A stretch of 64,000 bases of DNA from an uncultured Atribacterota bacterium (GCA_964586485.1 CAZPII010000001.1:2334-66333); one strand, 5' to 3'; counted from the stretch's first letter, positions 12,075-54,961 are shown. Numbers and translations are program-made. The notes: generated by a model not told the origin, from the letters alone.

Positions 12075-12083
12075 TGGTAATAT
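12075..12083 (+). promoter_or_regulatory. extended -10-like element TGgTAATAT
   Basis: Read directly, about 37 nt upstream of ATG 12120. Confidence 0.3.
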
Positions 12084-12119
12084 GAAACTGTTTTTAAAGT
12101 TATTTTTTTGGAGGAATTT

Positions 12120-12458: not shown

Positions 12459-12533
12459 GTATAAAGTTTCAGACAGATTTATAAAAATAAGTAAAATATT
12501 GGTTGGAATTTTTAAAAAATAAAGGAGAAAAGA

Positions 12534-12986: not shown

Positions 12987-12988
12987 TT

Positions 12989-35332: not shown

Positions 35333-35341
35333 GAGAATTTT

Positions 35342-35896
35342 ATGACTAACCAAATCTGTTTAAACCTTCAAAAAAGAATTATAGGACGATATAAAGATGT
35401 CATTATTTATAAAAATGGCAGGGTAGAAGTAATAGATTTTAAAGATAATCTTGTTGTAAATGTTGTCGGTGAATTTGCGGCTGGTTTATTTATAGGTGAT
35501 CCTGACGTTCAAGCTAATTTAGGTAATATACATTTTGCCATTGGGCGTGGTGATCCTAATTGGGATACATTACCAGATAAAGGAAAATCAAATGAACTTC
35601 CAACTGTTACTCAATTATATGATGAAATAACAAGAGTAAGTAAAGATTCCGTTGCCTATATTGATACTTGGGATGGGTCGGTTTTAGATCCGGGTCAAAA
35701 ATCTAATTTTATAAGAATAATTTTCTTACTTGATGATACTATTGCTATAGATGAATATATAAGAGAGTTTGGTTTGTTCTTTTTTGGCACGAGCGCTGCT
35801 GATAGCGGGTTTATGTTTGATTATGTTATTCATGCTTCATATCAAAAAACCAGCGACATTAAACAAATAATTAGAACTTTTGAAATAATGTTTTAA
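35342..35896 (+). CDS. hypothetical baseplate/fibre-associated protein (184 aa)
   Basis: AGGAG RBS. Assignment is by position only. Confidence 0.35.
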   Translation: MTNQICLNLQKRIIGRYKDVIIYKNGRVEVIDFKDNLVVNVVGEFAAGLFIGDPDVQANLGNIHFAIGRGDPNWDTLPDKGKSNELPTVTQLYDEITRVSKDSVAYIDTWDGSVLDPGQKSNFIRIIFLLDDTIAIDEYIREFGLFFFGTSAADSGFMFDYVIHASYQKTSDIKQIIRTFEIMF

Positions 35897-35907
35897 AGGA
35901 GAATATT

Positions 35908-38550
35908 ATGACCCAAAGAGATTATCCAGATGGCTGGAGTAATAAAGGTGACAAAGGGCATTTAAAAGATGCTTATAATGAGTATAAAAATTATTATCGT
36001 GTTTTTCAAGAACATAGTCAGCCAGCTATAGAACAAGATGTAAACGAAGCCAAAAAGATAGAAGAAAATTTTTTTACAAGATTCCTTCATGATTTTTTTC
36101 CTAATTATTTTATAGGTGAATCATTTAAAATTGAAGCTAATGGTGTCGATAATGATTTTTCAATTCAAGGTGGCATAGGTTTTGAAGGTGTCGATTTTGA
36201 ATTTAATAACAGGGCATATATTCATGGTATGCCTGTTGTTATATGTGAAAACATTACATATAAAACACAAGACATTTCTCAGCCTGCATTAGCCCCGCCA
36301 CCTTCAGGCACGAGAGAAGATATAGTTTATATTGACGCTTGGTTAAAAGAAGTAGATTATACCGACGATGAAGACATAGAATATGAACCTGTCAATAAAG
36401 GTTTTACAACAAGATTAAAAATGATAGCAGAAATAAAAGTTGCTCAAGGCGGCAGGCCAGTAGAAAGATATATTGATTCAAATGGTTTAGAACACTATAC
36501 AGCTGTTATTGCTAAGCTAGAGCGTGATACAGGAAATTCAATTACTTCTGGTATGATAACTGATTTACGATCTAAAACTAATACCTTTGCTTATGTTCAA
36601 AGTTCTAATTCAGAGACATTTGCTTTATCTGACGGGTCTAGTTTATCGGTTAATATCAATGAGGCAGGCGTTCAAACCATAACATTTTTAGAAACAGATT
36701 TTAATGATATTGGCCTAGCAACAGCGGATGAAGTTGTTAAAGTTATATCAAGAGATTTAGTTGATGGTATAGCTTATAAAGATAAAGATGGAAAAATATT
36801 TATAAGATCTAATGATCATGGTATAAATTCATCTGTTGAAATAACAGGTGGCTCAGCAAACACTCAATTCGGTTTTTCAACAAGTTCTGTGTCTGGTGAA
36901 GACGGAAATCTTTTACCAACATTTTTTACACAGCAAGGTTTAGTAAAAGCTTTGGGTGATTCATTAATATCAGGTATTAGTGGCGAAGGTGATGCCGGGA
37001 CTTTTACAGAAACAAATCATTTAAAAATAGTTGGCGGAACCAACATATTAACAACACTGTCAAATGACGGTGATGACGGAAAGATTGAAATATCTGTAGA
37101 CGGCCTTGAGCAAGGTATATCAAATTTACATGCTGACGGAGGTATGGCTAATCCGGCAGCTAACGCTACAACACTAAGGATTTTAGGTGGAACAAATTGC
37201 GCCACAGAATTAACCCAGAATGATGATAATGATTTCACTTTAACTATTAATGCGACCGGTGGTGGCGGATTAGGTGGAAGTGGATCATATAAAAGAATAG
37301 ATAAAGTTTCATCAGATGGTGTTGATCAGGGCGATGGATATTTCAGATTTGATCTTGGGGTTGGTAATGAATATATGGTTGGGCAATCTAATCCTTGTCC
37401 ATTAATTGTTTTTCAAGGTGTTGATCATCTTCACGAAGGCGAGACAAAAGACTGGAAACCTGTTGGCGCCACTGGTGTGCCGTCATCCTTTGTTGATATC
37501 GCTGGCCCTATTAGTCCTAATAATAATTACGCTTTTTATGTTTTAATTGAGCAAGAGACAGGTATAAGTGGCTCTGGTAATACCGGAACATTTACTAATT
37601 GCAGTGATATTCAAGTTATTGGTGGTCAATCATTAAATGTTGTTGCTTCTGAACCTTCACCTGCTAATGGCAAATTTCAAATAGATGTTGTAGGCAGCCT
37701 TGTTGATGGTAGTGATGCTTCGTCTAAGCATCATCATAATTCACTTTATGCTACAGTTGGGCATACTCATTCTGAAATTAATGAAATGCAAAGTATACTT
37801 AGATATTACGCCAACAACATGAAATTATTTTTAGATGTAATGGATAGGCCGCTCGGTCCTTGGTCAACCCTAGGTTCCACAAGAGTATTAATTAGAGATA
37901 ATTATAATGAATATACGGTAAATGGCCTATATACTGGTGGTGATTATTATCTTAGAGGTTTAAATACAAATTTAGTATGGGATATATCTACTGTCAATGA
38001 CAGAGGGAGTTCACCAAAATACTGGGATCTGTATATAAGATGGGATGGTGGAAATATTGTTAAAGAATGGTCATATGCCGGTGATACACCTTATAGTACA
38101 AAATCAGGTGCTCCAGATGAATGGCTGTGTATAGGCAGTATTTATGGTATCAAAAATGGATCATCATTTGGTATTTTTGATGTTGATTCTATTTTTGATA
38201 AACAAGAAATTTGGTATAATCGCGAAACATCGTCGGCAGTTAATGATGTGATAGTAACAAAGGGGAATTTCGGCAAAAGATGTTTAGTTTATGCTAGCGC
38301 TTATATAAATGGATCTGGTTCGCAATTATTCCTGACATTAACTTTATGTGGCCGTCCATATTATCAACAAAGCTCCTCAAATCCCATAGGGCCGGCTCCT
38401 TTTGATCATGGCGGTTGTTCTATGGCGGCATTGGAATTTGCTCAAGGTACTCAAGGTACCATAGTTGCATATAGCATACTTACACAATACAAGTACGGCG
38501 CCAATATAGCGAGGGAGGGGGCGCTGGTTGTTTATAAAAAAGTAATATAA
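35908..38550 (+). CDS. tail fibre-like protein (880 aa)
   Basis: AAAGGAG RBS. Gly-rich linker GGGGLGGSG and His motifs SKHHHNSLYATVGHTHSEI. Carries the shared ~90-aa module at about 36616-36900. Confidence 0.55.
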   Translation: MTQRDYPDGWSNKGDKGHLKDAYNEYKNYYRVFQEHSQPAIEQDVNEAKKIEENFFTRFLHDFFPNYFIGESFKIEANGVDNDFSIQGGIGFEGVDFEFNNRAYIHGMPVVICENITYKTQDISQPALAPPPSGTREDIVYIDAWLKEVDYTDDEDIEYEPVNKGFTTRLKMIAEIKVAQGGRPVERYIDSNGLEHYTAVIAKLERDTGNSITSGMITDLRSKTNTFAYVQSSNSETFALSDGSSLSVNINEAGVQTITFLETDFNDIGLATADEVVKVISRDLVDGIAYKDKDGKIFIRSNDHGINSSVEITGGSANTQFGFSTSSVSGEDGNLLPTFFTQQGLVKALGDSLISGISGEGDAGTFTETNHLKIVGGTNILTTLSNDGDDGKIEISVDGLEQGISNLHADGGMANPAANATTLRILGGTNCATELTQNDDNDFTLTINATGGGGLGGSGSYKRIDKVSSDGVDQGDGYFRFDLGVGNEYMVGQSNPCPLIVFQGVDHLHEGETKDWKPVGATGVPSSFVDIAGPISPNNNYAFYVLIEQETGISGSGNTGTFTNCSDIQVIGGQSLNVVASEPSPANGKFQIDVVGSLVDGSDASSKHHHNSLYATVGHTHSEINEMQSILRYYANNMKLFLDVMDRPLGPWSTLGSTRVLIRDNYNEYTVNGLYTGGDYYLRGLNTNLVWDISTVNDRGSSPKYWDLYIRWDGGNIVKEWSYAGDTPYSTKSGAPDEWLCIGSIYGIKNGSSFGIFDVDSIFDKQEIWYNRETSSAVNDVIVTKGNFGKRCLVYASAYINGSGSQLFLTLTLCGRPYYQQSSSNPIGPAPFDHGGCSMAALEFAQGTQGTIVAYSILTQYKYGANIAREGALVVYKKVI

Positions 38551-38560
38551 GGAGTGATTT

Positions 38561-39448
38561 ATGGGCGGTTCTTTTTCACAAAAAACAAATTTAGAAACAA
38601 TAAAAGATTCAGCATATATAGATGATTTTGATTCTACAAAATTTGATTCTGTTTTTAATGATGGGACAATAAGTGGATCCTCAGCGCATCATCATAATGA
38701 CCTATATATATCATCATCTGTTACTTATAATGATATGTTCTTAAATGAATTTGGTTTTACACCTAATTTATTTTTAGAAATAGGTGATTCTGGTGGTAAT
38801 ACAGGCAGTGATATTATTATTAATGCCAGTGTTGATAACAGTGTTTCAGTTAACATTAATGATACTCTATATACTAATGAATCACAGGTTGCATATTCTA
38901 TTTTTGGTTCTGGTTTAACAGTTGATAAATTTTATGACGTTTATGTCACTAATGATGGATCTAATTTTATAATTGATTTAAATTGTGTTGTTTTATCTGG
39001 TGACACGCCTTATCAATCGACTAATCCTGATCCTAATTTTTATACTAGAGTTGGATCTGCATTTATAACATCTGATATAGCCGGGACTGATCTGGCTATT
39101 TATTGTGCTGATACTGAAAACTCTAAAAGAGGTTATAGATGTTATCCTGAAAAAGTCAACGATGCGTCGAGAACATTAATTCCTGTTTTTAAACCAAGTA
39201 ATGTCTCAATGAACCTTTATGCTCCATCCGGTATAGACGATTTTGTTAGCTTAGAATATGTGATATCACCATATACATTTATTCTTTATTCTGATCCTGA
39301 TCTAACAAATGCTGATTCTGATAGCATATCATTTTATATTGATACACCGGGCCTATATGATGTTAATACTGAAATTAATGCTGGTAGTATTGATTATTCT
39401 TTGATAACAAACATAAATCCTCTAGTTATTAATAGTTATATAATTTAA
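38561..39448 (+). CDS. tail fibre-like protein (295 aa)
   Basis: AAGGAG RBS. SSAHHHNDLYISS motif shared with the upstream fibre. Confidence 0.4.
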   Translation: MGGSFSQKTNLETIKDSAYIDDFDSTKFDSVFNDGTISGSSAHHHNDLYISSSVTYNDMFLNEFGFTPNLFLEIGDSGGNTGSDIIINASVDNSVSVNINDTLYTNESQVAYSIFGSGLTVDKFYDVYVTNDGSNFIIDLNCVVLSGDTPYQSTNPDPNFYTRVGSAFITSDIAGTDLAIYCADTENSKRGYRCYPEKVNDASRTLIPVFKPSNVSMNLYAPSGIDDFVSLEYVISPYTFILYSDPDLTNADSDSISFYIDTPGLYDVNTEINAGSIDYSLITNINPLVINSYII

Positions 39449-39459
39449 AGGAGCTAGTA

Positions 39460-39885
39460 ATGCAAATAGTTGAACTAAATAAATCACAAAGCCTTATAAG
39501 TGCTTGGAAATTACAAAATCTTTTATTAACTGTAACAAGGCAGGACAATGATAAGGTTTATGTTAATGTTGCTGATGATCTTGGTGTTGATTTGGCAGTG
39601 ATGCAAGATATATTAGATAATTTAGATTCATTGCCTCCTCCATCTTATGTTCAGGTTTGTCTAACTGATATCATTTCTTCCTGTGAGACAATTGATATTC
39701 CAATTATAACAGAAGATAGTTTTTATAAAGCTTTGTTTTCTCAACAAAAAGATGGATCTGTTAAATTTAATTTATCACTGGCTCAAAGTTTTGTTGATCA
39801 TTTAGATTCAAATACTACGTTAACTGATCTTTCTGTTTCTGGTGTTAAAAATGTTTTTGTAAATTTAGGATTATTAATTACGTAA
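39460..39885 (+). CDS. hypothetical protein (141 aa)
   Basis: AAAGGAG RBS. Confidence 0.4.
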   Translation: MQIVELNKSQSLISAWKLQNLLLTVTRQDNDKVYVNVADDLGVDLAVMQDILDNLDSLPPPSYVQVCLTDIISSCETIDIPIITEDSFYKALFSQQKDGSVKFNLSLAQSFVDHLDSNTTLTDLSVSGVKNVFVNLGLLIT

Positions 39886-39898
39886 GAAAGAGGTTAAA

Positions 39899-40297
39899 AT
39901 GTTACAAGTTATTCTTAGTGGCCTTGAGACAATAAATGTAACCTCTTATAAACGTTTAGAGGTTTCTTTATTGTCTCAAGATGGTTATAAAATACCATAT
40001 AGAAATTTACTTAAAAAAATAAAAGGCGAAAGACCTCTTCCTATTATGATTAAATTTAATTCTGAGTTACCTGAAGGCTCTGTTGTTTATGCTGAAATAG
40101 ATGGTAAGAACAAAAGAGAATGTCAACCTGTCAGTAGTGAATTTGGTCTTTATCAGTTAAGTTTTTTTGCCGATGATTTTTTAACTGTTGGAGTAAAACC
40201 TTTACGTATTTATTTTAAAATTGATAGTCAAAATATTTTAGAATATGTACAAGAAAAATTTGATTTTGAAGTCTCATATAAAGAAAGGCAGGTTTAA
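39899..40297 (+). CDS. hypothetical protein (132 aa)
   Basis: AGAGG RBS. Confidence 0.4.
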   Translation: MLQVILSGLETINVTSYKRLEVSLLSQDGYKIPYRNLLKKIKGERPLPIMIKFNSELPEGSVVYAEIDGKNKRECQPVSSEFGLYQLSFFADDFLTVGVKPLRIYFKIDSQNILEYVQEKFDFEVSYKERQV

Positions 40298-40300
40298 AAT

Positions 40301-40690
40301 ATGAGTGAAATTCTTTTAAGAGTCAGGGATACAAATACTCAGGAAACATATGATCCTTATTTTGAGTTAAAAAATGTTGACGGTAATGACTATGCTGTTA
40401 TGTCAATGAACATCAATCAACCAAGGGCTATATCTTTTTTTGAAGATGAAATTGATAATAATGGAACACCTTTAACATTTGCTTATCCAACACTTTCAAT
40501 TAGTGTAACGAATAAAAGCAAGGGTGTTAGCGCTCCTAATCTTATGGTTTCTTTAGATTCAGGCTCAACATATGGCACAATTGAGCCCGGTGAATCATTA
40601 GTATTTGATGTTAGTAGAAACTCTATAATAATAAAATCAGAAAGCGAGTCATTACCGGCAAGGTATAGAGTTTCTTACGGATTTAGATAA
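40301..40690 (+). CDS. hypothetical protein (129 aa)
   Basis: ORF track; tightly packed with neighbours. Confidence 0.4.
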   Translation: MSEILLRVRDTNTQETYDPYFELKNVDGNDYAVMSMNINQPRAISFFEDEIDNNGTPLTFAYPTLSISVTNKSKGVSAPNLMVSLDSGSTYGTIEPGESLVFDVSRNSIIIKSESESLPARYRVSYGFR

Positions 40691-40722
40691 AATATAGTTA
40701 TAATTATTTATGAGGAGTTATC

Positions 40723-43188
40723 ATGTCAAACAAAATCAATTTGCCAGAATTACCCAAACACTTGGGTTTTGGTGGAACAGCAATAGATAAGTTCGTACCG
40801 GTTTTTCTCCAAGAAATAAAAGATCAATTAGAAGGTTTTGATGTCAGTGTTAATCCTTTAAATTTCAAAGGTGGCTGGGACGCGGACGCCAACGATCCTG
40901 AATTATCTGATGATGGCGGGGGCGGAGATGCGAACGATTTTTATATTGTAGAAACAGCTGGAAGCTCAGAGATTGATGGTATTAATGATTGGCAATTAAA
41001 AGATTGGATTATTAATACTGGCGAAAAATGGGTTAAAATTGATAATACGGATTTAGTTGTTTCTATATGTGACAAGACTGGTGTTGTTACACTTGATGGT
41101 GAAGACATTGATTATGATAACACTACAAGCGGCTTGACGGCAGAAGAAGTGCAGGCGGCCATTGATGAAATTGTTACTTTGATTCCTTCAGTTTCTAATT
41201 TTATTTCACAAGAGCTGATCGATGCAAAAGGCGATCTACTTGTTGGTTCATCTGATAATACTGTTGCCAAATTATCAGCCGGATCAAATGGTCAATTTTT
41301 ACAATCTGACGACACACAAGTAAATGGTGTTAAATGGGCCGACGTATCTTCCACTGAGCAAACGTATTATGTTGCTAATAATGGTGCTGAATTAGATGCC
41401 GCTATTGTTGCGCTGAATTCTGTTGGTGGTGGTATAATTCAATTAGCCGGACCAGATATATCATATTCACCCGCTGATAATAGAAATATTAGTAATATTC
41501 ATATTATCGGTAGTACAACTGGCATCGCAATGACAAAAATAACATTCAATAATGCTAATTATTGGTATGGTGATAATATTAATTTATCTCATATTAGAAT
41601 AGATCCATATTTGACAAATCCAGTTATTAAGTTGGTTTCTGCAAATGCAGCATTTATGCGTCTGGATAAAATTCAACATAGAGGAAGTCCAGTTGAATTT
41701 CAAATTGACGCCGATATTCCGGCATTATATATGTGGGCTGAACAGGTTGTTAGTTGCAAATTTAAAAATTCATCAAATACTACAGCTTATCTTTTTGACA
41801 ACTCTAATATAACATTTGAAGGTGGAACAGTTTATATTGATGATACAAGCACATCATCTGGCCAAACTACTCAGAATTTAATGTCGGTTGCAGAAAAAAA
41901 TAGTTATAATAATTCAGGCTCTGGTTTATCAGCTATAAATGTTCAGAACGCTATTGATGAAGTTAACACAAGGGTTACAGTTTTAGGTGCAAGAACATAT
42001 GAGGATCAGGTTTTACATGATGTAAAAGCTCTTGGCGATGCCACGCCTGATGTGGTTTTGACCGGAACTGCCGCTGGTGATCTTCAGACTGCTTTAGACA
42101 ATTTAAATGAAGGCGAAATCCTTCAGATTGATACAAGCGCTGTTTATTCTCCTATTTTGTTACCAGCAACAAACGGGATTAAAGTAAAAGTTGGCGACGG
42201 CTTTTTACCGTCAATAACAGGTGCAAATTGTATTAAGATTCCAGACGGATTAACAAACCAAATCATTTCCGGTATACTTATTGAAAATTGTACAACCGCA
42301 AGGCAAAATGAGTATGGTGCCGGTATTGCTCTGGAACATCAAGCAAAATTTGATAATTTAATATTTTGGAATATAACGATTCAAAATGTTCTATCTGGCT
42401 CTGGCGTTATGTTGAGCTACCATCAATCAATAAGCGGTGACAATTATGCTACGGCAAGTCTTTTATCTGAAATGTCAACTAAGTTAGCTTTTGTTGATTG
42501 TTTCTTGCATAAAGCTGTTAACGAAAAAATAGAAGGCGCAAGTATAGCTGTTAGAGGTATTAATAAACCTTATTTCCACAAAGTCCATTGTGATTCACAA
42601 GATCAGGGGAGAGGAATATCTCTACAAAATTGTATAAATATATTACTTGATGGAAATAAAATCATTAATACTCAAGATGGAAATGGCGGTGAAGCAATCA
42701 AAGTAGATGCCATTGGTTCACCTTCCGGATATACAAATACTGGAATTATTAAAAATAATATTTGCGCTTACGCAATTGAAGGTATTGATTTAGATGATAT
42801 GGTTGATGCTTTAGTTTATAACAATACCACTTGGAATTGTACAGGAGATGGTATATCATTTGATGACAGTGCCGTATCTGGCGTTGCATTAAATAATATT
42901 TGTTTTAATTCTGAAAATGGTATTAGAATTGAATCAGGTGCAATTGATGTATTTTTGAAGAAAAATGTTTGTTTTAATAACACGACTAATTATAATGTTC
43001 CAGTTGCTTATACGTTATGCCCGTCTAATTCAAATACAATGATGGATATGTTTAATGGTTCAAATTCTATACCATTTGTTGCCGATACGCCGGCAAATTG
43101 GGCAACATCAGTTCCATTAAACGCGCTTGATGCAATTAATAGAATTGCTAATGATTTAGCTACATTAGCAGGTGCTCCAATATCATAA
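40723..43188 (+). CDS. tail fibre/spike with right-handed beta-helix (pectate-lyase-like) region
   Basis: GAGGAG RBS. Repeated N-rich rungs (NNICAYAIEGIDLDD, NNTTWNCTGDGISFDD, NNICFNSENGIRIESG, KNVCFNNT) are typical of PbH1 repeats. Confidence 0.6.
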   Translation: MSNKINLPELPKHLGFGGTAIDKFVPVFLQEIKDQLEGFDVSVNPLNFKGGWDADANDPELSDDGGGGDANDFYIVETAGSSEIDGINDWQLKDWIINTGEKWVKIDNTDLVVSICDKTGVVTLDGEDIDYDNTTSGLTAEEVQAAIDEIVTLIPSVSNFISQELIDAKGDLLVGSSDNTVAKLSAGSNGQFLQSDDTQVNGVKWADVSSTEQTYYVANNGAELDAAIVALNSVGGGIIQLAGPDISYSPADNRNISNIHIIGSTTGIAMTKITFNNANYWYGDNINLSHIRIDPYLTNPVIKLVSANAAFMRLDKIQHRGSPVEFQIDADIPALYMWAEQVVSCKFKNSSNTTAYLFDNSNITFEGGTVYIDDTSTSSGQTTQNLMSVAEKNSYNNSGSGLSAINVQNAIDEVNTRVTVLGARTYEDQVLHDVKALGDATPDVVLTGTAAGDLQTALDNLNEGEILQIDTSAVYSPILLPATNGIKVKVGDGFLPSITGANCIKIPDGLTNQIISGILIENCTTARQNEYGAGIALEHQAKFDNLIFWNITIQNVLSGSGVMLSYHQSISGDNYATASLLSEMSTKLAFVDCFLHKAVNEKIEGASIAVRGINKPYFHKVHCDSQDQGRGISLQNCINILLDGNKIINTQDGNGGEAIKVDAIGSPSGYTNTGIIKNNICAYAIEGIDLDDMVDALVYNNTTWNCTGDGISFDDSAVSGVALNNICFNSENGIRIESGAIDVFLKKNVCFNNTTNYNVPVAYTLCPSNSNTMMDMFNGSNSIPFVADTPANWATSVPLNALDAINRIANDLATLAGAPIS

Positions 43189-43973
43189 TGTATAATTTAA
43201 TTTTAGGCTCCGGCGGTGTCCGGGGGTTTTCTCAAATTGGCGTTATTAGAGCCATTGAAAAATTAGAGCTGCCTATTGATAAAGTTTGCGGTGTTTCAAT
43301 AGGCGCTCTAATTGGCGCTTTTTATACTAATGGCTGGAATAGTTATGAAATAGAAAATTGGTTAATAGATAAAAACTTCTATTATCTTATTCTAAGAAAT
43401 CCTTTGATAGTATTTAAAGAAATGATCAAATATCAAAGATTTATGCCGCCATTTACAACAAAAAGAATAGTTAGATTAATTTTAGATGAAGATATAATAC
43501 ATAGAAATAATTTTTATGTTGCAATAGCAAATAGAACTGGGCGCAAAACGGAAATTTATAACAATACATCTTTAAGAACTTTAGAGCAACTTTTAAGTGC
43601 CACAGCAGCTATACCAGCGTTTTTTGAGCCTATATTCATTGATGGTTGCAGGTATTGTGATGGTGGAACATATATAGGAAATTGTCCAGTTGATATATTT
43701 AATGATAATAATACTAATATTGCTATTCAAATAAGTAAACCTTCTGTAAAACCAGATAGTGTTGGATTAGTTTCCGATATGCTTGATTCTATAGAGGGGT
43801 TACAATATAACATTTATTTAGAGCAGTTAGATGATTCTAAAAAAGAAATAATTATAGAGCCAGATTGCACTCATGTTAATTCAATCGATTTTCATATTGG
43901 TTTAAAAGATAGAAAGAAATTAATTGATATAGGATATAAGTATGCCCTGCAATGTTTAAAGGGAGTTGATTAA
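43188..43973 (+). CDS. patatin-like phospholipase
   Basis: GSGGVRG (aa 7-13), GVSIG (aa 35-39, GxSxG) and CDGG (aa 157-160). TAATG overlaps at both ends. Confidence 0.85.
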   Translation: MYNLILGSGGVRGFSQIGVIRAIEKLELPIDKVCGVSIGALIGAFYTNGWNSYEIENWLIDKNFYYLILRNPLIVFKEMIKYQRFMPPFTTKRIVRLILDEDIIHRNNFYVAIANRTGRKTEIYNNTSLRTLEQLLSATAAIPAFFEPIFIDGCRYCDGGTYIGNCPVDIFNDNNTNIAIQISKPSVKPDSVGLVSDMLDSIEGLQYNIYLEQLDDSKKEIIIEPDCTHVNSIDFHIGLKDRKKLIDIGYKYALQCLKGVD

Positions 43974-45049
43974 TGACTAGAATTAGAATAAGTTCTCCAT
44001 ATATTAATCCAAATAAAACATTAGAAAAATATGGGAATTATGTTACCGTTGACAATACTGGCGGCGGTGATTACGAGGATTTTCAATCTGCTTTAGACGC
44101 AATTATTGATGCAGATGAAGATAATAAATATATTGTAGCCGGCTATGGGCGAGGTGTATATTCAGGTCAAATTATCTTAGATAAACCTTTTATTAAATTG
44201 GCCTTTATGAATCCTATAGTTATTGAATCTGATCAGTCTCCAGTTTTAAAAATATCTAATAATTATGAATTACACGAAAACCTATATATTAGATCAATTA
44301 ACACTACATTAAATACCGACACAGTTTTATTGGAAACTCTTTGCAGCCCCGGGTTTTATAATAGTGTATTTTACGGAAAAAACGGGGCTTTTTCTTTAAG
44401 AATTAATGAAGCAGTTGTAGAATTAAATGATGTTAAATGTAATAGTAATTATAATTCGATAAAAATTGAAAACTCTGGTGTTTTAGTTTTTAAAGAAGGT
44501 GAAATAAATTCTGGCACTTCTTATAAAGATATAATTCAAGAGGTTTTATCAACTGTAAAATTAGGTCAAGTTCAATATAATAATAATAATAATAAATTAA
44601 CTTTAGATGGTACGCTTGAATTATTATCTAAAGCTTTTAATATTGAATTTGATAATAGTAATGTATCGCTTAAAAATGATCCAGAAAATGTACAAGATGC
44701 AATTGAAGCTTTATTTAAAAACTCTATTAAATCAAAACAGGTTAATAATTCAATCTCGCCTTATTATATTGACACTAAAGATAAATTGCTATACATTGAT
44801 TCTGGATCTGGCGCTATAACTTTATATATGCCTGAAGTTTCTCGGGTTGAATTCCAAGAGTTTGATATTTATGTTTCTAATTATGTGAATAATATTACTG
44901 TTTTAACTCAGGGTGGTGATTATTTTTATAAAAGTTTCTCATCATCAAATCAAGCTATTTTAAAAAATCAAAATTCAATTTTAAAGCTTAAGGCTTTAAA
45001 AGATCATGTTTTTGAAATATCAAGTTCAGTAGAAGTAAATTTTAGTTAA
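43973..45049 (+). CDS. beta-helix-like protein (pectinesterase/pectin-lyase-fold N-terminal signature)
   Basis: VTVDNTGGGDYEDFQSALDAIIDADEDNKYIVAGYGRGVYSGQIILDKPFIKLAF resembles the start of pectin-lyase-fold enzymes. Confidence 0.4.
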   Translation: MTRIRISSPYINPNKTLEKYGNYVTVDNTGGGDYEDFQSALDAIIDADEDNKYIVAGYGRGVYSGQIILDKPFIKLAFMNPIVIESDQSPVLKISNNYELHENLYIRSINTTLNTDTVLLETLCSPGFYNSVFYGKNGAFSLRINEAVVELNDVKCNSNYNSIKIENSGVLVFKEGEINSGTSYKDIIQEVLSTVKLGQVQYNNNNNKLTLDGTLELLSKAFNIEFDNSNVSLKNDPENVQDAIEALFKNSIKSKQVNNSISPYYIDTKDKLLYIDSGSGAITLYMPEVSRVEFQEFDIYVSNYVNNITVLTQGGDYFYKSFSSSNQAILKNQNSILKLKALKDHVFEISSSVEVNFS

Positions 45050-45061
45050 AAGGAGAATTTT

Positions 45062-46828
45062 ATGGCTGTTGTTGAATTACATTATTTAGGTGTTCCTGTA
45101 GCTCATAAAGAGGGCACAACAAACTCGACTTTTAAAGTTGGAGATAATGTAACATTAGGTCAGGGTTCATATGTTGATGCCACTGGCCAAATAGATTTTG
45201 GAACTACAGATTTAGTCACATCTGGAGATGTGACACTCACGGGCGCGGTTGATTTATCAGGTGCCACATCTGTTTCAGTTCCTACACCTACGTCAAGTGG
45301 TCATGCTGCAAATAAAGGTTATGTAGATAATGTAGCATCTAATATTTCAAACAAAGGTTCTGTTTTAGCGTATCAAGATACTCCGCCGGTTTCGCCAAAT
45401 GATGGTGATAAATACTTAGTCAAGGCCACTGCTACTGGAGATTGGGCGGGTCAAGAAGGTAAAATTGCTACATATGATAGTGACACAACATCTTGGTCAT
45501 TTAGCAGCGCTCCTGTTGAGGGCTGGGTTGTTTTCAACCAAGACGATTCTGATTCGATTTATGGCGATAGACAGTTAGTTTATACTGATTCTGGTTGGGA
45601 TACGTTCTCAAGTACAATTTATCATGAAAATCTTCCAGATGTTGATAGCGGAACTTATAAACATTTAACCGCTACACAGAGAACAGCTTTAACTGGTGGT
45701 GCATCAACTGACGCTGACGCTCAACATACCCATGATAGTAAGGCTGATAAAGTATCTTCACCTACAGCGGGTAATTTTGCCGGATTAGATGTTAATGGTA
45801 ATCTAACTGATTCCGGTTCTTCTTCTAGTGATTTCGCCTCGGCGTCGCATAGTCAAAACGATTCAACTATTAATATTAGCGGTTCACATGATGCATTATT
45901 AAGTGCAGCATCAACATTAGATGATGCTTTAGTTGTGTTAGATGATTTAGATGATTCAGATTTAAATTTATCAGGGTCACATGATGGTAATTTAAGTGCT
46001 TCCACTACTTTAGCTGATGCTATGGCGGTTTTAGATGATTTATCAACTGGAACATCAACGGCTAGTGAAACCTCAACTGTAGTTACAAGTTTTGATGGTT
46101 TATTATCTGCTTCTGACGATGATGTTCAAAAAGCTTTAGATACATTAGATGATCATGGAGTGACAGACCATAAGGCATCAGGTTTAACAGCGGGTCATGT
46201 ATTGAGAGCAACCGGTGCCGATTCCATGGCATTTGGCGCAATTCAAGCCTCTGATTTACCTTCAAATATAGATGCTTTAAAAATTGGTTCTGGTGATGTT
46301 ACAAATACAGAATATGGTTATTTAGCTAATGTAACTAGTGATATTCAAGATCAGATAGATGGTAAAGCAGATTCTTCTCACAATCATGATACGGATTATA
46401 TCAGTATAATATCAAGCCCTACAGCTGGTAATGCTGTGAAACAAACAGCAGGTGGTGAACTGGAAGATGCTGGTTTTGCAATTGATGAATATGAAGGTTC
46501 ACTTACTTTAAAAGAAAAGACTGTTTCTAATACTACACTTGATCTCGGATCATCAGCAAATAAAAATGTTGGTTTTGTTTCTGCCTATGCTGACACAGCT
46601 AATGTAACAATTACATTGCCTGATTTAGCAACAAATGTTGGAAAACAATATGTCATTGATGCCGCAAGTATAACAGGTGCGTATAAGGTTAATGTTCAAA
46701 GAGCTGGAACTGATACTTTATATGGCGGTTATTCACAGGCACAATTAGGAACTACTGATCATAGTATCAGATTAATAGCTGGTAAAAATAGCTGGAAATT
46801 TGATGCCGTTGGTGCAACTTTAAGTTAA
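45062..46828 (+). CDS. tail fibre protein with DUF2793-like segment and ~30-aa repeats
   Basis: AANKGYVDN; PPVSPNDGDKYLVKATATGDWAGQEGKIATYDSDTTSWSF is DUF2793-like. Three repeats end in ..LDDALVVLDDL, ..LADAMAVLDDL and ..VQKALDTLDDH. Confidence 0.6.
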   Translation: MAVVELHYLGVPVAHKEGTTNSTFKVGDNVTLGQGSYVDATGQIDFGTTDLVTSGDVTLTGAVDLSGATSVSVPTPTSSGHAANKGYVDNVASNISNKGSVLAYQDTPPVSPNDGDKYLVKATATGDWAGQEGKIATYDSDTTSWSFSSAPVEGWVVFNQDDSDSIYGDRQLVYTDSGWDTFSSTIYHENLPDVDSGTYKHLTATQRTALTGGASTDADAQHTHDSKADKVSSPTAGNFAGLDVNGNLTDSGSSSSDFASASHSQNDSTINISGSHDALLSAASTLDDALVVLDDLDDSDLNLSGSHDGNLSASTTLADAMAVLDDLSTGTSTASETSTVVTSFDGLLSASDDDVQKALDTLDDHGVTDHKASGLTAGHVLRATGADSMAFGAIQASDLPSNIDALKIGSGDVTNTEYGYLANVTSDIQDQIDGKADSSHNHDTDYISIISSPTAGNAVKQTAGGELEDAGFAIDEYEGSLTLKEKTVSNTTLDLGSSANKNVGFVSAYADTANVTITLPDLATNVGKQYVIDAASITGAYKVNVQRAGTDTLYGGYSQAQLGTTDHSIRLIAGKNSWKFDAVGATLS

Positions 46829-46844
46829 TTTTTGATTATATAAG

Positions 46845-46892
46845 AAGTGGCCGGTGAAAAATAAAAATTTTGCTGGCCACTTTATGTTTTTT
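46845..46892 (+). terminator. rho-independent terminator
   Basis: Stem aagtggccgg / ctggccactt (10 bp including one G-U) with an 18-nt loop, then tatgtttttt. TATAAT follows at 46897-46902. Confidence 0.6.
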
Positions 46893-46919
46893 CTTATATA
46901 ATATTTTAGTGAGGAAAAC

Positions 46920-47405
46920 ATGTCTGTAAATCATATTTATCCGGGTATAATAGAGCCAACATTTAACAGGGTTAAAGTTGCCCAATCAACACCTGTTGAT
47001 AGTAATGAATTGGCAACAAAATCTTATGTTGATTCACAAAGTGGCGGTGGGTCTTCAAGTTTGTCTTATTCTAGCACATCTGATTCCAACGGCATATCGC
47101 AATTAGATGGTGTTTATGTTGATTCTAATGGAAAATTGGCAACTGGTAGTAGCTCTACGGATTCAGAATCTAAAATAATAGGCATAGCCAATTCTGCTAT
47201 ATCTGGCGATGCAAGTGGGTCAATTATAACTTTTGGTTTAATATCTGGATTATCAGGGTTAACACAAGGCAGTTATTATTATTTACAATCAGATGGGACT
47301 ATAAGCGTAACACCACCGTCTTCGGGTTATGTGGTAGAAATTGGACAAGCATTGAAAACAACTGAATTATTTATTAATATACAAAGAAGAGTTAAATTAG
47401 CATAA
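46920..47405 (+). CDS. small fibre-like protein (161 aa)
   Basis: GAGGAAAA RBS. ELATKSYVDSQSGGG motif; Ser/Gly-rich. Confidence 0.4.
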   Translation: MSVNHIYPGIIEPTFNRVKVAQSTPVDSNELATKSYVDSQSGGGSSSLSYSSTSDSNGISQLDGVYVDSNGKLATGSSSTDSESKIIGIANSAISGDASGSIITFGLISGLSGLTQGSYYYLQSDGTISVTPPSSGYVVEIGQALKTTELFINIQRRVKLA

Positions 47406-48322
47406 TGGCTGATAGGAAACCTTTAATATTATATAATGGAAAAACAAGAGAAACAGAGCCAGATGAATTTATAATAGCTGATTCTATTTCTTCAGGTTTG
47501 GAAGTTAGTGTTTTAAAATCAGTCAATAAATTTATGACAGATGTTAAAAAAATAACATTTGTTGGATCAAATTTAACTGTTTCGGAAAATATTACAAATC
47601 AAGCCGATATTATATTATCAACAACTAATTCTTGGGGCTGTTTGCTTGAATCGGCACCTAGAATATTTACAGGCTCTAGTCAAAAAGAAGTTACAATAGA
47701 AGATTTTTATTTGAGATTACCAGATGGTGCTCATTTAAAAAATATCGATCAAATAAAATTAGATATAAGTAATTCTGATCACAGGTATTTAAGTGTACCA
47801 GAGCAATCAGATACTTGGTATTATATTTATGTCACAGATGATTTTTCTAGTTATCCAGCTTTTGGTTTTTTTGACACTGTTCCGCCAAATGAACTTGGAG
47901 AGCATTCTGTTATTAATGCTAGATTTATAGGTTCTGTTTTTAATAATAATAATTTAGATTTTTTAAGATTTGATAAAAGTAATAATATAGTGCATTTAAC
48001 AGAAGATAAAAGTGTTGTGCAAATATTATCTTCTGGTTTAGAAAGTTCTTTTTCATACCAAGATATTAAAAAATATGTTCCAAAAACAGCCGGTAGTGTT
48101 ATCATAAATAATAATTTAAGCTCAGGTTATTTAGATATATTTGAAACATTCGGTGGTAGAAATTCAAATTTAAATGATATATATGATAATCAGATGATAA
48201 TACCGCTGGATGGAAATTTTCAACTAGGCTGTAGATATTCTGGCTCTCAAGGAACAGAAACTTTATACTTTTATGGTTATATCGAAAATATATTTATTGT
48301 GAAAACGGATGTAATTTATTAA
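47405..48322 (+). CDS. fibre-family paralog A (no LamG insert)
   Basis: TAATG overlap. Shares N-terminal (KPLILYNGKTRE) and C-terminal (WYYIYVTDD, ARFIGSV, LYFYGYIENI) motifs with the next two genes. Confidence 0.45.
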   Translation: MADRKPLILYNGKTRETEPDEFIIADSISSGLEVSVLKSVNKFMTDVKKITFVGSNLTVSENITNQADIILSTTNSWGCLLESAPRIFTGSSQKEVTIEDFYLRLPDGAHLKNIDQIKLDISNSDHRYLSVPEQSDTWYYIYVTDDFSSYPAFGFFDTVPPNELGEHSVINARFIGSVFNNNNLDFLRFDKSNNIVHLTEDKSVVQILSSGLESSFSYQDIKKYVPKTAGSVIINNNLSSGYLDIFETFGGRNSNLNDIYDNQMIIPLDGNFQLGCRYSGSQGTETLYFYGYIENIFIVKTDVIY

Positions 48323-51300
48323 TGTATAAGCCTATAGTAAGTAATAATGGGAATTTAGAAGAATTACAATCAGGTGATACCCTTTACGGGGTAGCATCTG
48401 GTGATGTTGTTCTAGATATAAAAGATGAAAACACTTTGAAAAAAGAAGGTGTTAAAAATCTTGTTTTTTCTGGTGGGGTATTTTTAGAGGATGCTGGAGG
48501 CAATGAATTAAAAATATCCTCTAGTAATGGCGGTGCAACAAGCTTTAGCCCTAGAATGCCTGTTATTTCAGGTTTAAGAAAGGCAGAGATAACTTCTAGC
48601 AATTCAGAGAATTATTCAATTTCAACCGGAAATAACGATAAAATAAAATTGAATATCGATAAATGTGGTAGTGTTGAGGTTACATTAACTTCAGGCTCAA
48701 GAACCGCTTCTCAAATATGTAATGATATTAATTTAGCATTAAATTCTTCTACTAATTATCATGATTCATATACATATGCGATTGATGATAATTCTAAAGT
48801 TAAACTAAGATCGCTTCGTTATATGAAGAACCCTGAGATTATCATAGAATCAATATCAAATGATGCCTATACTACCTTGGGTTTTTCAACTGGCACTACA
48901 GATTCTTGGAAGCAAAATGAATTAAAAGTTCACCCTTATGATTTATTGCTGCCAGATGGAACGATTCAAAAAGAAACCACTCAGAAAACATTAGATATTA
49001 CCAATGATGATGATTTAGAGCAACAAAGTCTAACAGCTAGTTCAAGTCAGAAGATTTTTAATTTTTCTGACATGAAGTTAGAAACATATGAAAAACAATA
49101 CACAACAATAACATATCCTCATATCCATTTAAGATTCAATAATAGCTTTTTCGATTTGAGCGACAATAATCATATAGTTCAAACAATAACTGGTGTAACA
49201 TTCAATTCATCAGTGAAAAAATTAGGCTCTCATAGTGCAGATTTTTCAGGCTCTTCTGCTTATCTTGATTTTGGCAATATAGCCGATTTAGAAAGAGATG
49301 AAGAGTTTTCATTTGAAGGCTGGGTAAGATTTGATTCAGTTGGCTCAGCACAAGGTATCATATCAAAAAGACTTGGTGGGGCAACTTATCAGGGATATTA
49401 TTTTGGTATTGATGGAAATAATAAGTTAACTTTCATATTAGCCAATAACCTTGGTGCTGGCCAATATCTTCACATTACTACCACATCTACTTATTCGGCC
49501 AATACTTGGTATCATTTTGTATTAACTTATGATGGCTCTGGGAATGCCAGTGGAGCAAAAATATATGTTAATAATACACTGCAAAATGTAACAATCAATA
49601 AAAATACATTGTCTGGTGATATATCTAATAGTGCCAATCTTATCATTGGAAACAATCAAGGACTGTCAATTGGTATTGATGGAAAACTTGATTCTATAAT
49701 AATCCATGGTAGTGAATTAGCAACATTAGAAATTAATGATAGATATAGAAATGGTCAATATTCTTGCCATGGGCTAGACGCGGACAAATGCTTACTTAAC
49801 CTAACTTGCTATAATAGTGTTGATGATTCAAGTTATAGAGAAAAGTCAACAACTGGAAACAATATATCATATTCAGGAACAGCACCTGATAGATATGCTG
49901 TTTTCAATGGGACATCATCAAAAATAGATCTTGGTAATGATTCATCATTATTATTTGAAAAAGATGAAGAGTTTTCATTTTCGTACTGGTTTAATCCTAG
50001 TGATGCCAGTTCAAGTTATAGAACTATTTTTAGCTCTGTTGATTCGTCAGGGGATAAAGGCATTATCGTTCGGCATCAGAATGGAAAAATTGAAGTTCAT
50101 TTAGTTAATACTTCGGGATCAAATAGCATAGTAATTTCAACTACTAATAATGTTCTCGGGACATCAAGTTTTAAACATGTTTTTATTACTTATGATGGTT
50201 CTGGGAGTGCCAATGGAGCAAAAATATATGTTAATAATGTTGAAATAACAGACATAACAACTACTTATGATAATTTAAGTGCCACCATTGTTAATAGTTC
50301 AAATAATATTAACATAGGATATGATAATAATTCAAACTACTTATATGGAAACCTAAGAGATCTTTTGATCTTTAGTGAGAAATTATCAACTTCACAAAAA
50401 GAAGAAATATACAATTCAGGGGTAAAGAAATCTTATGATTATATAAGTTATAATCCAGCTGAATTAGTATTACATCTGAATAATACTAATAATGATTCGT
50501 CACAGAATAATTATGTTGGCACGTCAACTAATATAACATATTCATCATCTGTGAAGAAATTAGGAAGTCATTCTGCAAGTTTCAATGGGATATCGTCAAA
50601 AATAGATTATAATGATGTATGTTCGTTTGAAAAAGATAAACCTTTTTCTTTTGAATTTTGGGTTTATGTAGATAGCTCAGGATCTGGTGCAAGGCCAATA
50701 TTATCGAAAATAAATTCTTCAGGTTCAAATGAAGGGTACGAAATAGAAATAAACTCTTCTGGAGGATTGCAATTCACAATTGTAGATATATCAACCTCGA
50801 TGTATGTTTATACTTCACCTGTTTCTACTGATACATTAATACATGCGGTTGTTTCTTATGATGGATCATCGAATAGAAGTGGTATGAAAATATATATTAA
50901 TAGCGTAGCGCAAAGCTTGACAACTGGCGGAAGCTCAAGTTTAAGCAATACAATAGTATCAACAGCACCATTAATTGTTGGAAGTCAATCAACTAATTGG
51001 TTTGATGGTTATATCGATGAATTGATTATTTATTCAGAAGAAATTTCTCAAGCTGATGTAAATAATAGATATAATTCAGGAAATGGTGAAGAGTATAATT
51101 TTGGCTCCGAAGAAATACCTGTATTTAAGGTTCTAGTCAATTCAGTACAGCAAGAATTGAATAATGATTATGTACTTAATTCAGAAACCCAAATTGAATT
51201 TTATTCAGGGCTTTCCTCCAGTGATATAGTAGAAGCTATAATAAAAATTGAAGGAAACAGGTGGTATTATCTCTATATCACTGATATATCATTATTTTCA

Positions 51301-51774
51301 ACTAGAAAAGTTTTTGCTTCCAATCAAAGGCCAAATTGGTTTGGTGAACATCAGAAATCAAATTTTAACGGCCGATATATAGGGTCGTTTAAAACAGATG
51401 GTCTCACAGAAATAAGACCATTTATAAAATTTGGAGATGAAGTTTTACAAGAAGAAGAAATTATATATAGTGGGACCATTACTACAGATGGTTCTAATCT
51501 AAACCTTAATGATTACTTACCTCCAACAACAAATTTAGCTAAACTATCGGCATTATCATCGACGGTTAACTCAAGGCCATACGTTTGGTCGAGGTTTGAT
51601 AGCAATTTCTTATGTTCTCTTGCTGGTAAATGCAAAGGAATTAATTATAGAGATCTTATCTATTTAACGGATGAAGAAAGAAATATCTTTCTTCAAAGAG
51701 AAGACCAAAATAATACTATAAATGTTTATTCACATGGTTATATGGAAAACGTATTAGAGCCAATTGGAGCTTAA
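48322..51774 (+). CDS. fibre-family paralog B with three LamG (Laminin_G_3/concanavalin-like) domains
   Basis: Three copies of the pattern SA(D/S)F(S/N)G.S..ID...(E/K)FSF..W......W.H...TYDGSG.A.G.KIYVN.....G..D.(L/I)II...(L/I)S...I..RYNSG, at about 49120-51110. Confidence 0.75.
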   Translation: MYKPIVSNNGNLEELQSGDTLYGVASGDVVLDIKDENTLKKEGVKNLVFSGGVFLEDAGGNELKISSSNGGATSFSPRMPVISGLRKAEITSSNSENYSISTGNNDKIKLNIDKCGSVEVTLTSGSRTASQICNDINLALNSSTNYHDSYTYAIDDNSKVKLRSLRYMKNPEIIIESISNDAYTTLGFSTGTTDSWKQNELKVHPYDLLLPDGTIQKETTQKTLDITNDDDLEQQSLTASSSQKIFNFSDMKLETYEKQYTTITYPHIHLRFNNSFFDLSDNNHIVQTITGVTFNSSVKKLGSHSADFSGSSAYLDFGNIADLERDEEFSFEGWVRFDSVGSAQGIISKRLGGATYQGYYFGIDGNNKLTFILANNLGAGQYLHITTTSTYSANTWYHFVLTYDGSGNASGAKIYVNNTLQNVTINKNTLSGDISNSANLIIGNNQGLSIGIDGKLDSIIIHGSELATLEINDRYRNGQYSCHGLDADKCLLNLTCYNSVDDSSYREKSTTGNNISYSGTAPDRYAVFNGTSSKIDLGNDSSLLFEKDEEFSFSYWFNPSDASSSYRTIFSSVDSSGDKGIIVRHQNGKIEVHLVNTSGSNSIVISTTNNVLGTSSFKHVFITYDGSGSANGAKIYVNNVEITDITTTYDNLSATIVNSSNNINIGYDNNSNYLYGNLRDLLIFSEKLSTSQKEEIYNSGVKKSYDYISYNPAELVLHLNNTNNDSSQNNYVGTSTNITYSSSVKKLGSHSASFNGISSKIDYNDVCSFEKDKPFSFEFWVYVDSSGSGARPILSKINSSGSNEGYEIEINSSGGLQFTIVDISTSMYVYTSPVSTDTLIHAVVSYDGSSNRSGMKIYINSVAQSLTTGGSSSLSNTIVSTAPLIVGSQSTNWFDGYIDELIIYSEEISQADVNNRYNSGNGEEYNFGSEEIPVFKVLVNSVQQELNNDYVLNSETQIEFYSGLSSSDIVEAIIKIEGNRWYYLYITDISLFSTRKVFASNQRPNWFGEHQKSNFNGRYIGSFKTDGLTEIRPFIKFGDEVLQEEEIIYSGTITTDGSNLNLNDYLPPTTNLAKLSALSSTVNSRPYVWSRFDSNFLCSLAGKCKGINYRDLIYLTDEERNIFLQREDQNNTINVYSHGYMENVLEPIGA

Positions 51775-51776
51775 AA

Positions 51777-53399: not shown

Positions 53400-53405
53400 G
53401 TGAGT

Positions 53406-53819
53406 ATGTATTTATTTTTTAATAAGTCCGATAATATAATACAAGCGTTTGGTATTGTTGATTTTGAATCAACTGGAGAATCAGGGTTTAATTCATTACT
53501 TCATAAGCAATACAAGGGAAATTTTAAAATACCTCAAATATTTGGCGACTTAAGAGTGCAGGAAATAACAACTGAACAGGATCAGGATACTTTTACTCTT
53601 GATTTTGATTATAAAATAAATAAAAATAATATATGTATTGAAAAACAAGTAGATGGAGTTTTTCAAATAATTGATCCTATTGATTATCAGGAGTTTGATA
53701 TAAATACAATAGTTTTTGAAACAGCTTTTGATTCTGGTGTTGTTTTAAGGTTTTCATCTAATGAAATTATAGAATATATTTTTGATGAAAACTCTGAAAC
53801 TTTTAGCGTTTCTGATTAG
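53406..53819 (+). CDS. hypothetical protein (137 aa)
   Basis: ATG 53406; the track start is GTG 53400. Confidence 0.4.
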   Translation: MYLFFNKSDNIIQAFGIVDFESTGESGFNSLLHKQYKGNFKIPQIFGDLRVQEITTEQDQDTFTLDFDYKINKNNICIEKQVDGVFQIIDPIDYQEFDINTIVFETAFDSGVVLRFSSNEIIEYIFDENSETFSVSD

Positions 53820-53835
53820 ATGAAAGGATTTAATA

Positions 53836-54249
53836 ATGCTTAAAGAAAAAGAAAAACCAGTTAAATCTAATTGTCCTGATGATTTATGTGATCACATAGA
53901 TTTTAATATTATATTTAAATGGATTAAAAATAAATATAGTGGCGTATTCAATGGTAGTATTGCTGCTATTGTCGCTGGTATTGTTGGTGTTGGCATTGTT
54001 GGGTCTCTTGTTTATTCTGAGCCAGTTCAAAAAATGGTAGACACACATATTAATGAGCTGGTTTCACAAAAAACTAAAAATTTTGCTACAAAAGAAGATG
54101 TTAAATGTTTAAAAGAAGATATAAACTTAAGATTAAGTGAACAAAATATTAGTATACGTAATATAAAAAATGATATAAAAAAGGATATGAAAAGTGTTGA
54201 TGATAAGCTTGATAGGTTAATTATGTATCAACTTGAAAGGAAAAATTAA
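53836..54249 (+). CDS. single-pass membrane protein (holin candidate)
   Basis: AAAGGA RBS. TM segment IAAIVAGIVGVGIVGSLVY followed by a charged coiled-coil tail. Lies upstream of the peptidase gene. Confidence 0.3.
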   Translation: MLKEKEKPVKSNCPDDLCDHIDFNIIFKWIKNKYSGVFNGSIAAIVAGIVGVGIVGSLVYSEPVQKMVDTHINELVSQKTKNFATKEDVKCLKEDINLRLSEQNISIRNIKNDIKKDMKSVDDKLDRLIMYQLERKN

Positions 54250-54563: not shown

Positions 54564-54574
54564 AGGAGTAATGT

Positions 54575-54952: not shown

Positions 54953-54961
54953 GAGTATATA

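Follow-up and report, generated by a model that had tools for sequence, protein, structure and literature searches.

The stretch of DNA analysed in this work, hereafter the window (64,000 nucleotides (nt), GCA_964586485.1, CAZPII010000001.1:2334-66333, listed under an uncultured Atribacterota bacterium), is a segment of a myovirus genome in which all the genes lie on the + strand, and it harbours, at positions 43188..43973, an open reading frame (ORF) of 261 amino acids (aa) encoding a patatin-like acyl hydrolase. The gene is embedded in the late tail-fibre/spike operon of the phage, apart from the lysis region, and directly follows the gene for a beta-helix tailspike. Its position beside the tailspike, retained in a few distant relatives, suggests that the product might be a lipid-cutting helper for the tail. 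The explanation that we favour, to which we assign a probability of roughly 40%, is that of a late accessory lipase working with the tailspike and perhaps riding on it. What is new is a small clade of a well-known family, found in a rare, conserved tailspike-patatin arrangement and with a potentially new role.

Family, fold and catalytic site

The first-pass annotation of the window, made from the sequence alone, had read in this ORF the whole catalytic signature of the patatins, and both the ORF and its motifs were found exactly where it had placed them. The Gly-rich oxyanion loop GSGGVRG (aa 7-13) is encoded at 43206..43226, the nucleophile elbow GVSIG (aa 35-39), which embeds the predicted catalytic Ser37, at 43290..43304, and the CDGG motif (aa 157-160), which contains the predicted catalytic Asp158, at 43656..43667. 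The Pfam Patatin profile (PF01734) matches the protein far above chance (E=1.2e-27, 97.8 bits, the cut-off being 27.7), and the alignment extends over profile positions 1-190 of 191. Among solved structures, a sequence search of the PDB returned PlpD alone (5fqu, E=5e-17), in an alignment that pairs GVSIG with GTSMG and CDGG with VDGG. G35, S37, G39 and D158 are invariant among the aligned homologues (14/14), while G7, S8, G9, G10 and G13 are nearly so.

The AlphaFold2 (AF2) model, built on the 14-sequence alignment, has a predicted local distance difference test score (pLDDT) of 88 and a predicted template modelling score (pTM) of 0.88. When compared with the PDB by Foldseek, it was superposed on PlpD with a template modelling (TM) score of 0.78-0.80 and E=3.5e-17; CapV, CapE, potato patatin, VipD, ExoU and cPLA2 came next, and all the 36 top matches are patatin or cPLA2-fold proteins. 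Profile search, structure prediction and Foldseek therefore place the protein in the patatin/cPLA2 fold, with an aligned Ser/Asp dyad, and the catalytic signature proposed at first sight is borne out. The fold begins at residue 2 and runs to the C-terminus, i.e., the protein consists of the catalytic domain alone; neither the AF2 model nor a hydropathy scan (19-residue Kyte-Doolittle maximum, 1.37) disclosed a signal peptide, a transmembrane segment or an added domain. No PHROG family matched it at E<=0.01. As judged from sequence and model, the product of this ORF is a compact soluble acyl hydrolase of the patatin family, similar to PlpD and RssA; its oxyanion loop and Ser37-Asp158 dyad are intact, and it is apparently an active enzyme.

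The comparison with known patatins reveals likenesses as well as differences. PlpD of P. aeruginosa (PDB 5fqu/5fya) is the best match both in sequence (24% identity) and in structure; its catalytic domain has the same size, and the oxyanion loop, the GxSxG Ser and the DGG Asp align. However, PlpD is a bacterial protein secreted through the type Vd pathway by means of a POTRA domain and a beta-barrel translocator, whereas the phage protein, whose gene belongs to a tail-fibre operon, is a catalytic domain only and lacks any secretion signal; the POTRA domain, the 16-strand beta-barrel and the signal peptide that define the type Vd secreted patatins are all missing from it. The RssA/YlbK-type proteins (NF007623; 'NTE family protein') are similar in that they consist of about 260-300 aa and of a patatin domain only. 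Unlike them, the phage protein exhibits a GNCP[VI]D signature and lid signatures of its own and lies in a context of phage structural genes; moreover, it scores 58 bits with the RssA equivalog model (NCBIfam NF007623), whose cut-off is 272 bits, and is therefore no RssA orthologue. CapV and CapE, belonging to the cyclic-oligonucleotide-based antiphage signalling system (CBASS), have the same patatin fold and rank second among the structural matches, but the phage protein is devoid of the regulatory extras of the approximately 340-aa CapV, and no cyclase or nucleotide-sensing partner accompanies its gene. The score with the CBASS lipase (CapV) model (NCBIfam NF041079) is 20.6 bits vs a cut-off of 200, and the PADLOC phospholipase effector models give only about 19 bits. 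A defence effector, of CBASS or of another system, was thus rejected on the basis of the family thresholds, the neighbours being fibre proteins without defence-family matches; this agrees with the earlier remark that no cyclase, sensor or other defence partner is adjacent to the gene.

The relatives of the protein are very few. A word-indexed search of 5.8 billion proteins retrieved the identical protein and two relatives at 48-50% identity, all the others being at <=31%; the nearest relatives outside the clade are ordinary bacterial RssA/YlbK-like proteins (22-31% identity). An exhaustive hidden Markov model search of 1.84 billion cluster representatives yielded three proteins at E<=1e-30 (the window protein, P0017 and P0018), and beyond these three clade clusters a sharp drop to generic patatins (E ~1e-22) was observed. 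The five sequences of the clade, whose overall identity is 32-50%, all keep G7, G9, G10, G35, S37, G39, D158 and G159; in addition, their lid region is modified, and they carry at aa 164-169 a GNCP[VI]D signature particular to the clade, in which G164, N165, C166, P167 and D169 are invariant. No further relatives were retrieved from IMG/VR, whether the query was the protein itself or a 3-sequence alignment, nor from the GTDB genomes (two scans) or the JGI metagenome contigs (one scan). When the 588-aa and 880-aa neighbours served as queries, IMG/VR yielded at most short motif matches and no additional related genomes. Sequence comparison thus indicates that the clade is real, distinct and very rare, and that the protein is under long-term constraint.

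In the phage collection, 12/50,697 records match the patatin at E<=1, and none of these 12 is a verified isolate genome; the matches in the viral structure library come mostly from giant and insect viruses, with few uncultured phages. Hence, patatin genes appear to be nearly absent from sequenced phages. Two of the 12, the 'Acinetobacter phage MD-2021a rssA_2' records (about 254 kb; the locus L005 is CAKLQH020000002.1, 180863-193540), were rejected as phage examples, since the adjoining genes are bacterial chromosomal ones (qseB, ampG, ispA, aroP); they seem to be bacterial contigs that entered the phage collection under a wrong label.

Tailspike-patatin adjacency in related loci

The gene upstream of the patatin (40723..43188) codes for an 821-aa tail fibre/tailspike protein. 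Its N-terminal part contains tail-fibre-like segments (PHROG minor tail, tail protein and tail fibre matches at aa 36-134, 145-211 and 383-419), while its C-terminal part (aa ~430-800) is a NosD-like right-handed beta-helix (Pfam NosD, E=1.5e-5, aa 671-797; Beta_helix, E=1.8e-4), in agreement with its original description as a beta-helix fibre. No match was found by a sequence search of the PDB.

A beta-helix tailspike gene directly precedes the patatin gene in four lineages, i.e., the window, L008, L001 and L003. The first relative is represented by a 78-kb NCBI contig (L008; GCA_053939485.1, JBMXNO010000101.1) and by two further contigs (L009, L010). In all the loci of the three relatives (L008-L010, L001-L002, L003-L004), the spacing between the beta-helix/NosD gene and the patatin gene ranges from a 1-nt overlap to a 10-nt gap, and the identity of the patatins among the adjacency loci is 37-50%. 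In L008-L010, the genes are arranged in the order 225-aa, 508-aa NosD/Beta_helix, patatin, 157-aa, 358-aa, DUF2793 and 1103-aa, with DUF559 and a DEAD helicase further on; L008 is syntenic with the window, the identity being 44% for the 358-aa protein, 56% for the DUF2793 protein, 50% for the 880-aa homologue and 47% for DUF559. In the 13.5-kb contig L001, the end of a 536-aa Beta_helix/NosD gene and the start of the patatin gene share 1 nt, and residues 433-761 of the window tailspike are 27% identical (E=2e-25) to the product of the former. In L003-L004, a 535-aa Beta_helix/NosD gene is followed, after 10 nt, by the patatin gene. According to a BLASTP comparison, what L001 shares with the window is limited to the patatin, the beta-helix protein and a single short fibre motif. 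The genome organization of L001 is unlike that of the window: genes for SbcC-like and SbcD-like (Metallophos) proteins and for a dCTP deaminase (95-3444 and 5384-5947) are located directly upstream of its small-fibre/beta-helix/patatin block.

The gene downstream of the patatin behaves differently. In the window, it encodes the 358-aa protein; in L008, a 157-aa gene separates the patatin from the 358-aa homologue, and in L001 an unrelated 326-aa gene follows. The 358-aa protein being separated from the patatin in one relative and absent in the other, the three-enzyme fibre-patatin-fibre cassette envisaged by the first-pass annotation is not a conserved unit. Of the arrangement whose conservation it had suggested surveying, the first half was recovered, with a beta-helix gene directly before the patatin in three other lineages, while the downstream fibre gene is not kept. 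The comparison of these loci supports the idea that the tailspike-to-patatin pair is conserved and that the downstream neighbour is not.

Genomic setting of the patatin gene

The window belongs to an uncultivated, contractile-tailed phage that is AT-rich (about 30% GC); no phage record contains a capsid protein more than about 28% identical to that of the window, so that no close isolate is available. The genes follow one another from the major capsid protein (start 14626) to the tail sheath (19221-21236), the tape measure protein (start 22938), an M23 tail lysin (start 27023), a baseplate J-like wedge (start 30930) and a baseplate P2-I-like protein (start 32390). A long series of fibre-like genes (35908-53399) comes next, followed by a 137-aa protein with a transmembrane segment and a coiled coil (53836-54249), an M15 endolysin (start 54962), a 215-aa DUF559 nuclease (56020-56667) and then helicase, DnaB and primase (starts 56870, 60242 and 61772). 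The families of the neighbouring genes confirm that, as had been noted at first, the patatin gene is located within a tail-fibre/spike cluster, here that of a myovirus.

Both ends of the patatin gene overlap its neighbours, as previously reported: at 43186-43190 (TAATG) the TAA stop of the 821-aa ORF shares its A with the patatin ATG, and a second TAATG, at 43971-43975, joins the patatin stop to the start codon of the 358-aa ORF in the same way. Since a 1-nt stop/start overlap exists at 9/65 gene junctions of the window and gaps of <=15 nt at 38/65, translational coupling is routine in this genome; the overlaps had been taken as evidence that the gene is wired into the operon, and they do exist, but taken alone they are no sign of it. 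The GC content of the patatin gene (0.30) and that at its third codon positions (0.19) are those of the neighbouring genes, indicating that the gene is not a recent insertion. It has no promoter or terminator signature of its own. A terminator scan found no strong terminator from 35.9 kb up to a hairpin with a 16-bp stem followed by a T-run (46844..46883), which is the best such site in 35000-54000 and is probably the end of the transcription unit holding the patatin gene. A promoter-like site (TGGCCA-17-TATAAT, 46874-46902) overlaps this hairpin, suggesting that the two together mark an operon boundary within the fibre cluster.

The 358-aa protein (43973..45049) has no assigned family: no Pfam, PHROG, NCBIfam or PADLOC match and no PDB sequence match were found, and its single homologue is P0172, since it is kept only in L008. 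Its AF2 model is all-beta with a low-confidence pLDDT of 57, and the fold matches (tailspikes, pectin methylesterase) are weak (TM <=0.3); on the basis of this model, its description as 'beta-helix-like' is possible, and it is possibly a small spike-like receptor-binding protein. The next gene (45062..46828) encodes a 588-aa DUF2793 tail-fibre protein (Pfam DUF2793, E=1.9e-12; PHROG tail fibre families), whose L008 homologue occupies the equivalent relative position. A short helical motif ('xVQxAIDxL' / 'ALDxLA') recurs in the 821-aa, 358-aa and 588-aa proteins (40723-46828), as well as at the C-termini of beta-helix homologues of other contigs (e.g., P0179 and L001); it appears to be a shared fibre module, with nothing specific to the patatin.

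Other features of the fibre cluster and of the remaining window may be recorded here. The 1150-aa protein encoded at 48322-51774 contains three concanavalin/Laminin_G_3 lectin-like stretches (E=1.9e-54), and the 540-aa protein at 51777-53399 contains one such domain. One family of unknown function, phrog_15814, is matched twice, by aa 357-610 of the tail sheath and by aa 227-335 of the 880-aa fibre-cluster protein encoded at 35908-38550, which suggests a shared decoration or Ig-like domain. The DUF559/MTES_1575 endonuclease-like gene lies between the lysis region and the helicase, a position also kept in L008, and may encode a nuclease resembling homing endonucleases or Vsr. The region 1-13000 has a very low GC content (0.21-0.29) and is made up of small ORFs, many of which begin with GTG or TTG in the mechanical ORF list. 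No tRNAs were found in the window.

The lysis candidates are located at 53836-55690, about 10 kb downstream of the patatin gene. The 137-aa protein encoded shortly before the M15 endolysin region combines one transmembrane segment with a long coiled coil behind it, and is a candidate holin or i-spanin; no o-spanin-like lipoprotein was detected near the lysis genes by a lipobox scan, which was crude and represents weak evidence. The relatives of the endolysin are found in phages of Pelagibacter, Flavobacterium, Bacteroides, Escherichia and Vibrio, i.e., of Gram-negative hosts; together with the GC content of about 30%, this loosely suggests a low-GC diderm (Gram-negative) host.

Possible roles of the patatin-like protein

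The favoured explanation, an accessory lipase associated with the tailspike, can be outlined as follows. Termination-reinitiation at the TAATG overlap would couple the synthesis of the patatin to that of the tailspike, to which the enzyme would probably remain attached in the manner of fibre accessory proteins encoded downstream of their fibre. At adsorption or penetration, it might hydrolyse ester-linked acyl chains, whether those of lipids in the host envelope or those of the lipids by which surface polysaccharides are anchored, while the beta-helix domain would handle the polysaccharide itself. In its favour are the intact active site, the place of the gene within the fibre/spike cluster, an adjacency to the tailspike that is conserved at patatin identities of only 37-50%, a base composition like that of the neighbours, the distance from the lysis cluster and the family thresholds that speak against a defence effector. 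The closest functional analogy to such a tail accessory is that of the SGNH-type esterase tailspikes and structural deacetylases of phages such as G7C, PP99 and Aristophanes (e.g., PMC6989608, PMC8471582), which place a hydrolytic esterase in the adsorption apparatus, beside or instead of polysaccharide depolymerases. However, these enzymes have the SGNH fold, are domains within the tailspike chain and act on polysaccharides by removing O-acetyl groups, whereas the window esterase, a polypeptide of its own, has the patatin fold and a predicted substrate that is probably lipid.

The control offered by other beta-helix proteins bears on this explanation in two ways. The beta-helix domain of the window tailspike (aa 430-821) has 15 homologues at 37-46% identity, whereas the patatin-linked beta-helix proteins of L001 and L008 are only 27-28% identical to it. 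The contexts of six homologues, all on phage-like contigs, were examined (L011, L012/L013, L014, L015, L024/L025 and L026); most of these contigs carry phage genes (capsid, head-tail joining, Laminin_G_3, BppU_N, DNA ligase, methyltransferase), and in L015 and L024 a Laminin_G_3 gene follows the beta-helix tailspike homologue. The window head being closer to proteins of contigs in which no patatin was found than to the patatin-linked ones, the beta-helix domain has been swapped: in the patatin-bearing lineage, the upstream beta-helix head was exchanged while the patatin stayed in place, a pattern that a fixed accessory gene beside an exchangeable receptor-binding domain would give.

Several observations, on the other hand, weigh against the accessory lipase. 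In the fetched flanks of the six beta-helix contigs no patatin was found, and tblastn was negative at E<=10 (L026, which stops 53 codons past the beta-helix gene, says little on the downstream neighbour); this tailspike enzyme family therefore needs no patatin. Fusions of a beta-helix with a patatin are absent among the best 150 patatin matches, and the window protein, a bare catalytic domain, possesses no N- or C-terminal adaptor for docking to a fibre. The start/stop overlaps are common genome-wide and not special to the patatin gene. In the most divergent clade member (L007, a 2-kb contig), the upstream ORF encodes 131 aa and no beta-helix is in view. L008, and perhaps L001, are related phages, so that the adjacency could be inherited synteny rather than functional linkage. 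The evidence for a link with the virion is so far positional, consisting of the fibre operon and of the conserved adjacency to the tailspike. That the patatin is a true virion component, carried non-covalently on the C-terminal part of the beta-helix tailspike, is a narrower proposal and lies on the unlikely side.

The main alternative, which is on the unlikely side and yet deserves serious consideration, is that of a soluble lipase, absent from the virion, that acts at the stage of late lysis. It would accumulate in the cytoplasm and, released through the lesion made by the holin, might attack phospholipids of the inner membrane or of the inner leaflet of the outer membrane, helping the last step of envelope disruption. 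Such an enzyme might be a functional analogue of the mycobacteriophage LysB and of the 'patatin-based lytic cassette' of phage WO. It would suit a bare soluble protein without a signal peptide, a transmembrane segment or a docking domain, encoded in a late operon; the closest phage relatives of the endolysin infect Gram-negative hosts, and the negative outcome of the crude lipobox scan leaves a role for an alternative outer-membrane disruptor. However, the scan was a crude one, and the transmembrane/coiled-coil protein could itself be a spanin component; furthermore, the compact lysis region (53836 for this protein, 54962 for the M15 endolysin) lies about 10 kb away from the patatin, which in L008 and L001 follows the tailspike and not lysis genes.

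The precedent for a lytic patatin comes from the Wolbachia phage WO, where it is hypothesis only: a patatin-like phospholipase (gp45) is located at or next to the tail module and has been proposed to serve lysis or entry (PMC3173496, PMC9203015). The two phages are alike in having a patatin-family gene at or next to the tail module of a tailed phage, with a proposed digestion of membrane lipids; the comparison is one of gene context and description, not of sequence. WO is temperate and has no canonical endolysin, and its host is an intracellular bacterium in which peptidoglycan was never found (PMC9203015), whereas the window phage encodes M15 and M23 peptidoglycan hydrolases and has a separate lysis region. 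In addition, the WO patatin is accompanied by holin-like and ankyrin genes outside the fibre genes, while the window patatin follows a beta-helix tailspike. The combination by which the WO cassette is defined (holin-like and ankyrin neighbours, no endolysin; PMC9203015) is therefore not that of the window. The statement of the first-pass annotation that it was aware of no characterised tailed-phage tail module with a patatin holds in so far as none has been characterised as a tail component, and must be tempered by the partial precedent of WO (PMC3173496, PMC9203015). If the patatin of the window did act in lysis, it would represent a Gram-negative counterpart of LysB and would support the patatin-lysis hypothesis put forward for phage WO.

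It is rather improbable that the gene is an accessory moron unrelated to the tail and lodged in the variable fibre region, where it might act in superinfection exclusion or abortive infection, in anti-defence or in the modification of host lipids. Patatin-like phospholipases do occur as morons in Burkholderia prophages (PMC2920897), and patatins also as effectors of defence systems; the extreme rarity of the clade (three clusters in 1.84 billion representatives), the ordinary bacterial nature of the nearest non-clade relatives (RssA/YlbK-like, 22-31%) and the beta-helix homologues checked elsewhere, which have no patatin nearby, would all fit such an origin. Nevertheless, the gene shows neither a promoter/terminator signature of its own nor a composition other than that of its neighbours, no sensor, cyclase or other partner accompanies it, the scores with defence lipases are low (20.6 bits vs 200; about 19 bits with PADLOC), and the position after the tailspike is kept over loci at 37-50% identity.

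A small share of the probability, a little below that of the moron, is left to explanations other than those considered here. Beta-helix tailspikes generally fold without separate chaperones, and a non-enzymatic assembly chaperone, i.e., a patatin fold co-opted for folding or trimerising the upstream tailspike, is very improbable even though the gene occupies the site canonical for tail-fibre assembly proteins, directly downstream of a fibre gene, and is translationally coupled to it, since all the catalytic elements (the G-x-G-G loop, the GxSxG Ser and the D-G Asp) are invariant in five lineages at 32-50% identity, indicating selection for catalysis, and none of the checked beta-helix homologues has a patatin nearby.

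Coming back to the favoured explanation, the accessory lipase of the tailspike, no characterised virion-associated patatin or phospholipase of a tailed phage was found in the literature. To our knowledge, the enzyme activities of phage tails are directed either to polysaccharides (depolymerases, deacetylases) or to peptidoglycan (tail lysins). If the patatin does belong to the tail, this would be the first tailed-phage adsorption apparatus with a dedicated phospholipase/lipid-esterase subunit, complementing the depolymerisation of polysaccharides at entry. A lipid-directed enzyme beside the tailspike would then represent a third class of envelope-breaching activity, and would be, in addition, a candidate tool for attacking surface structures that are anchored by lipids.

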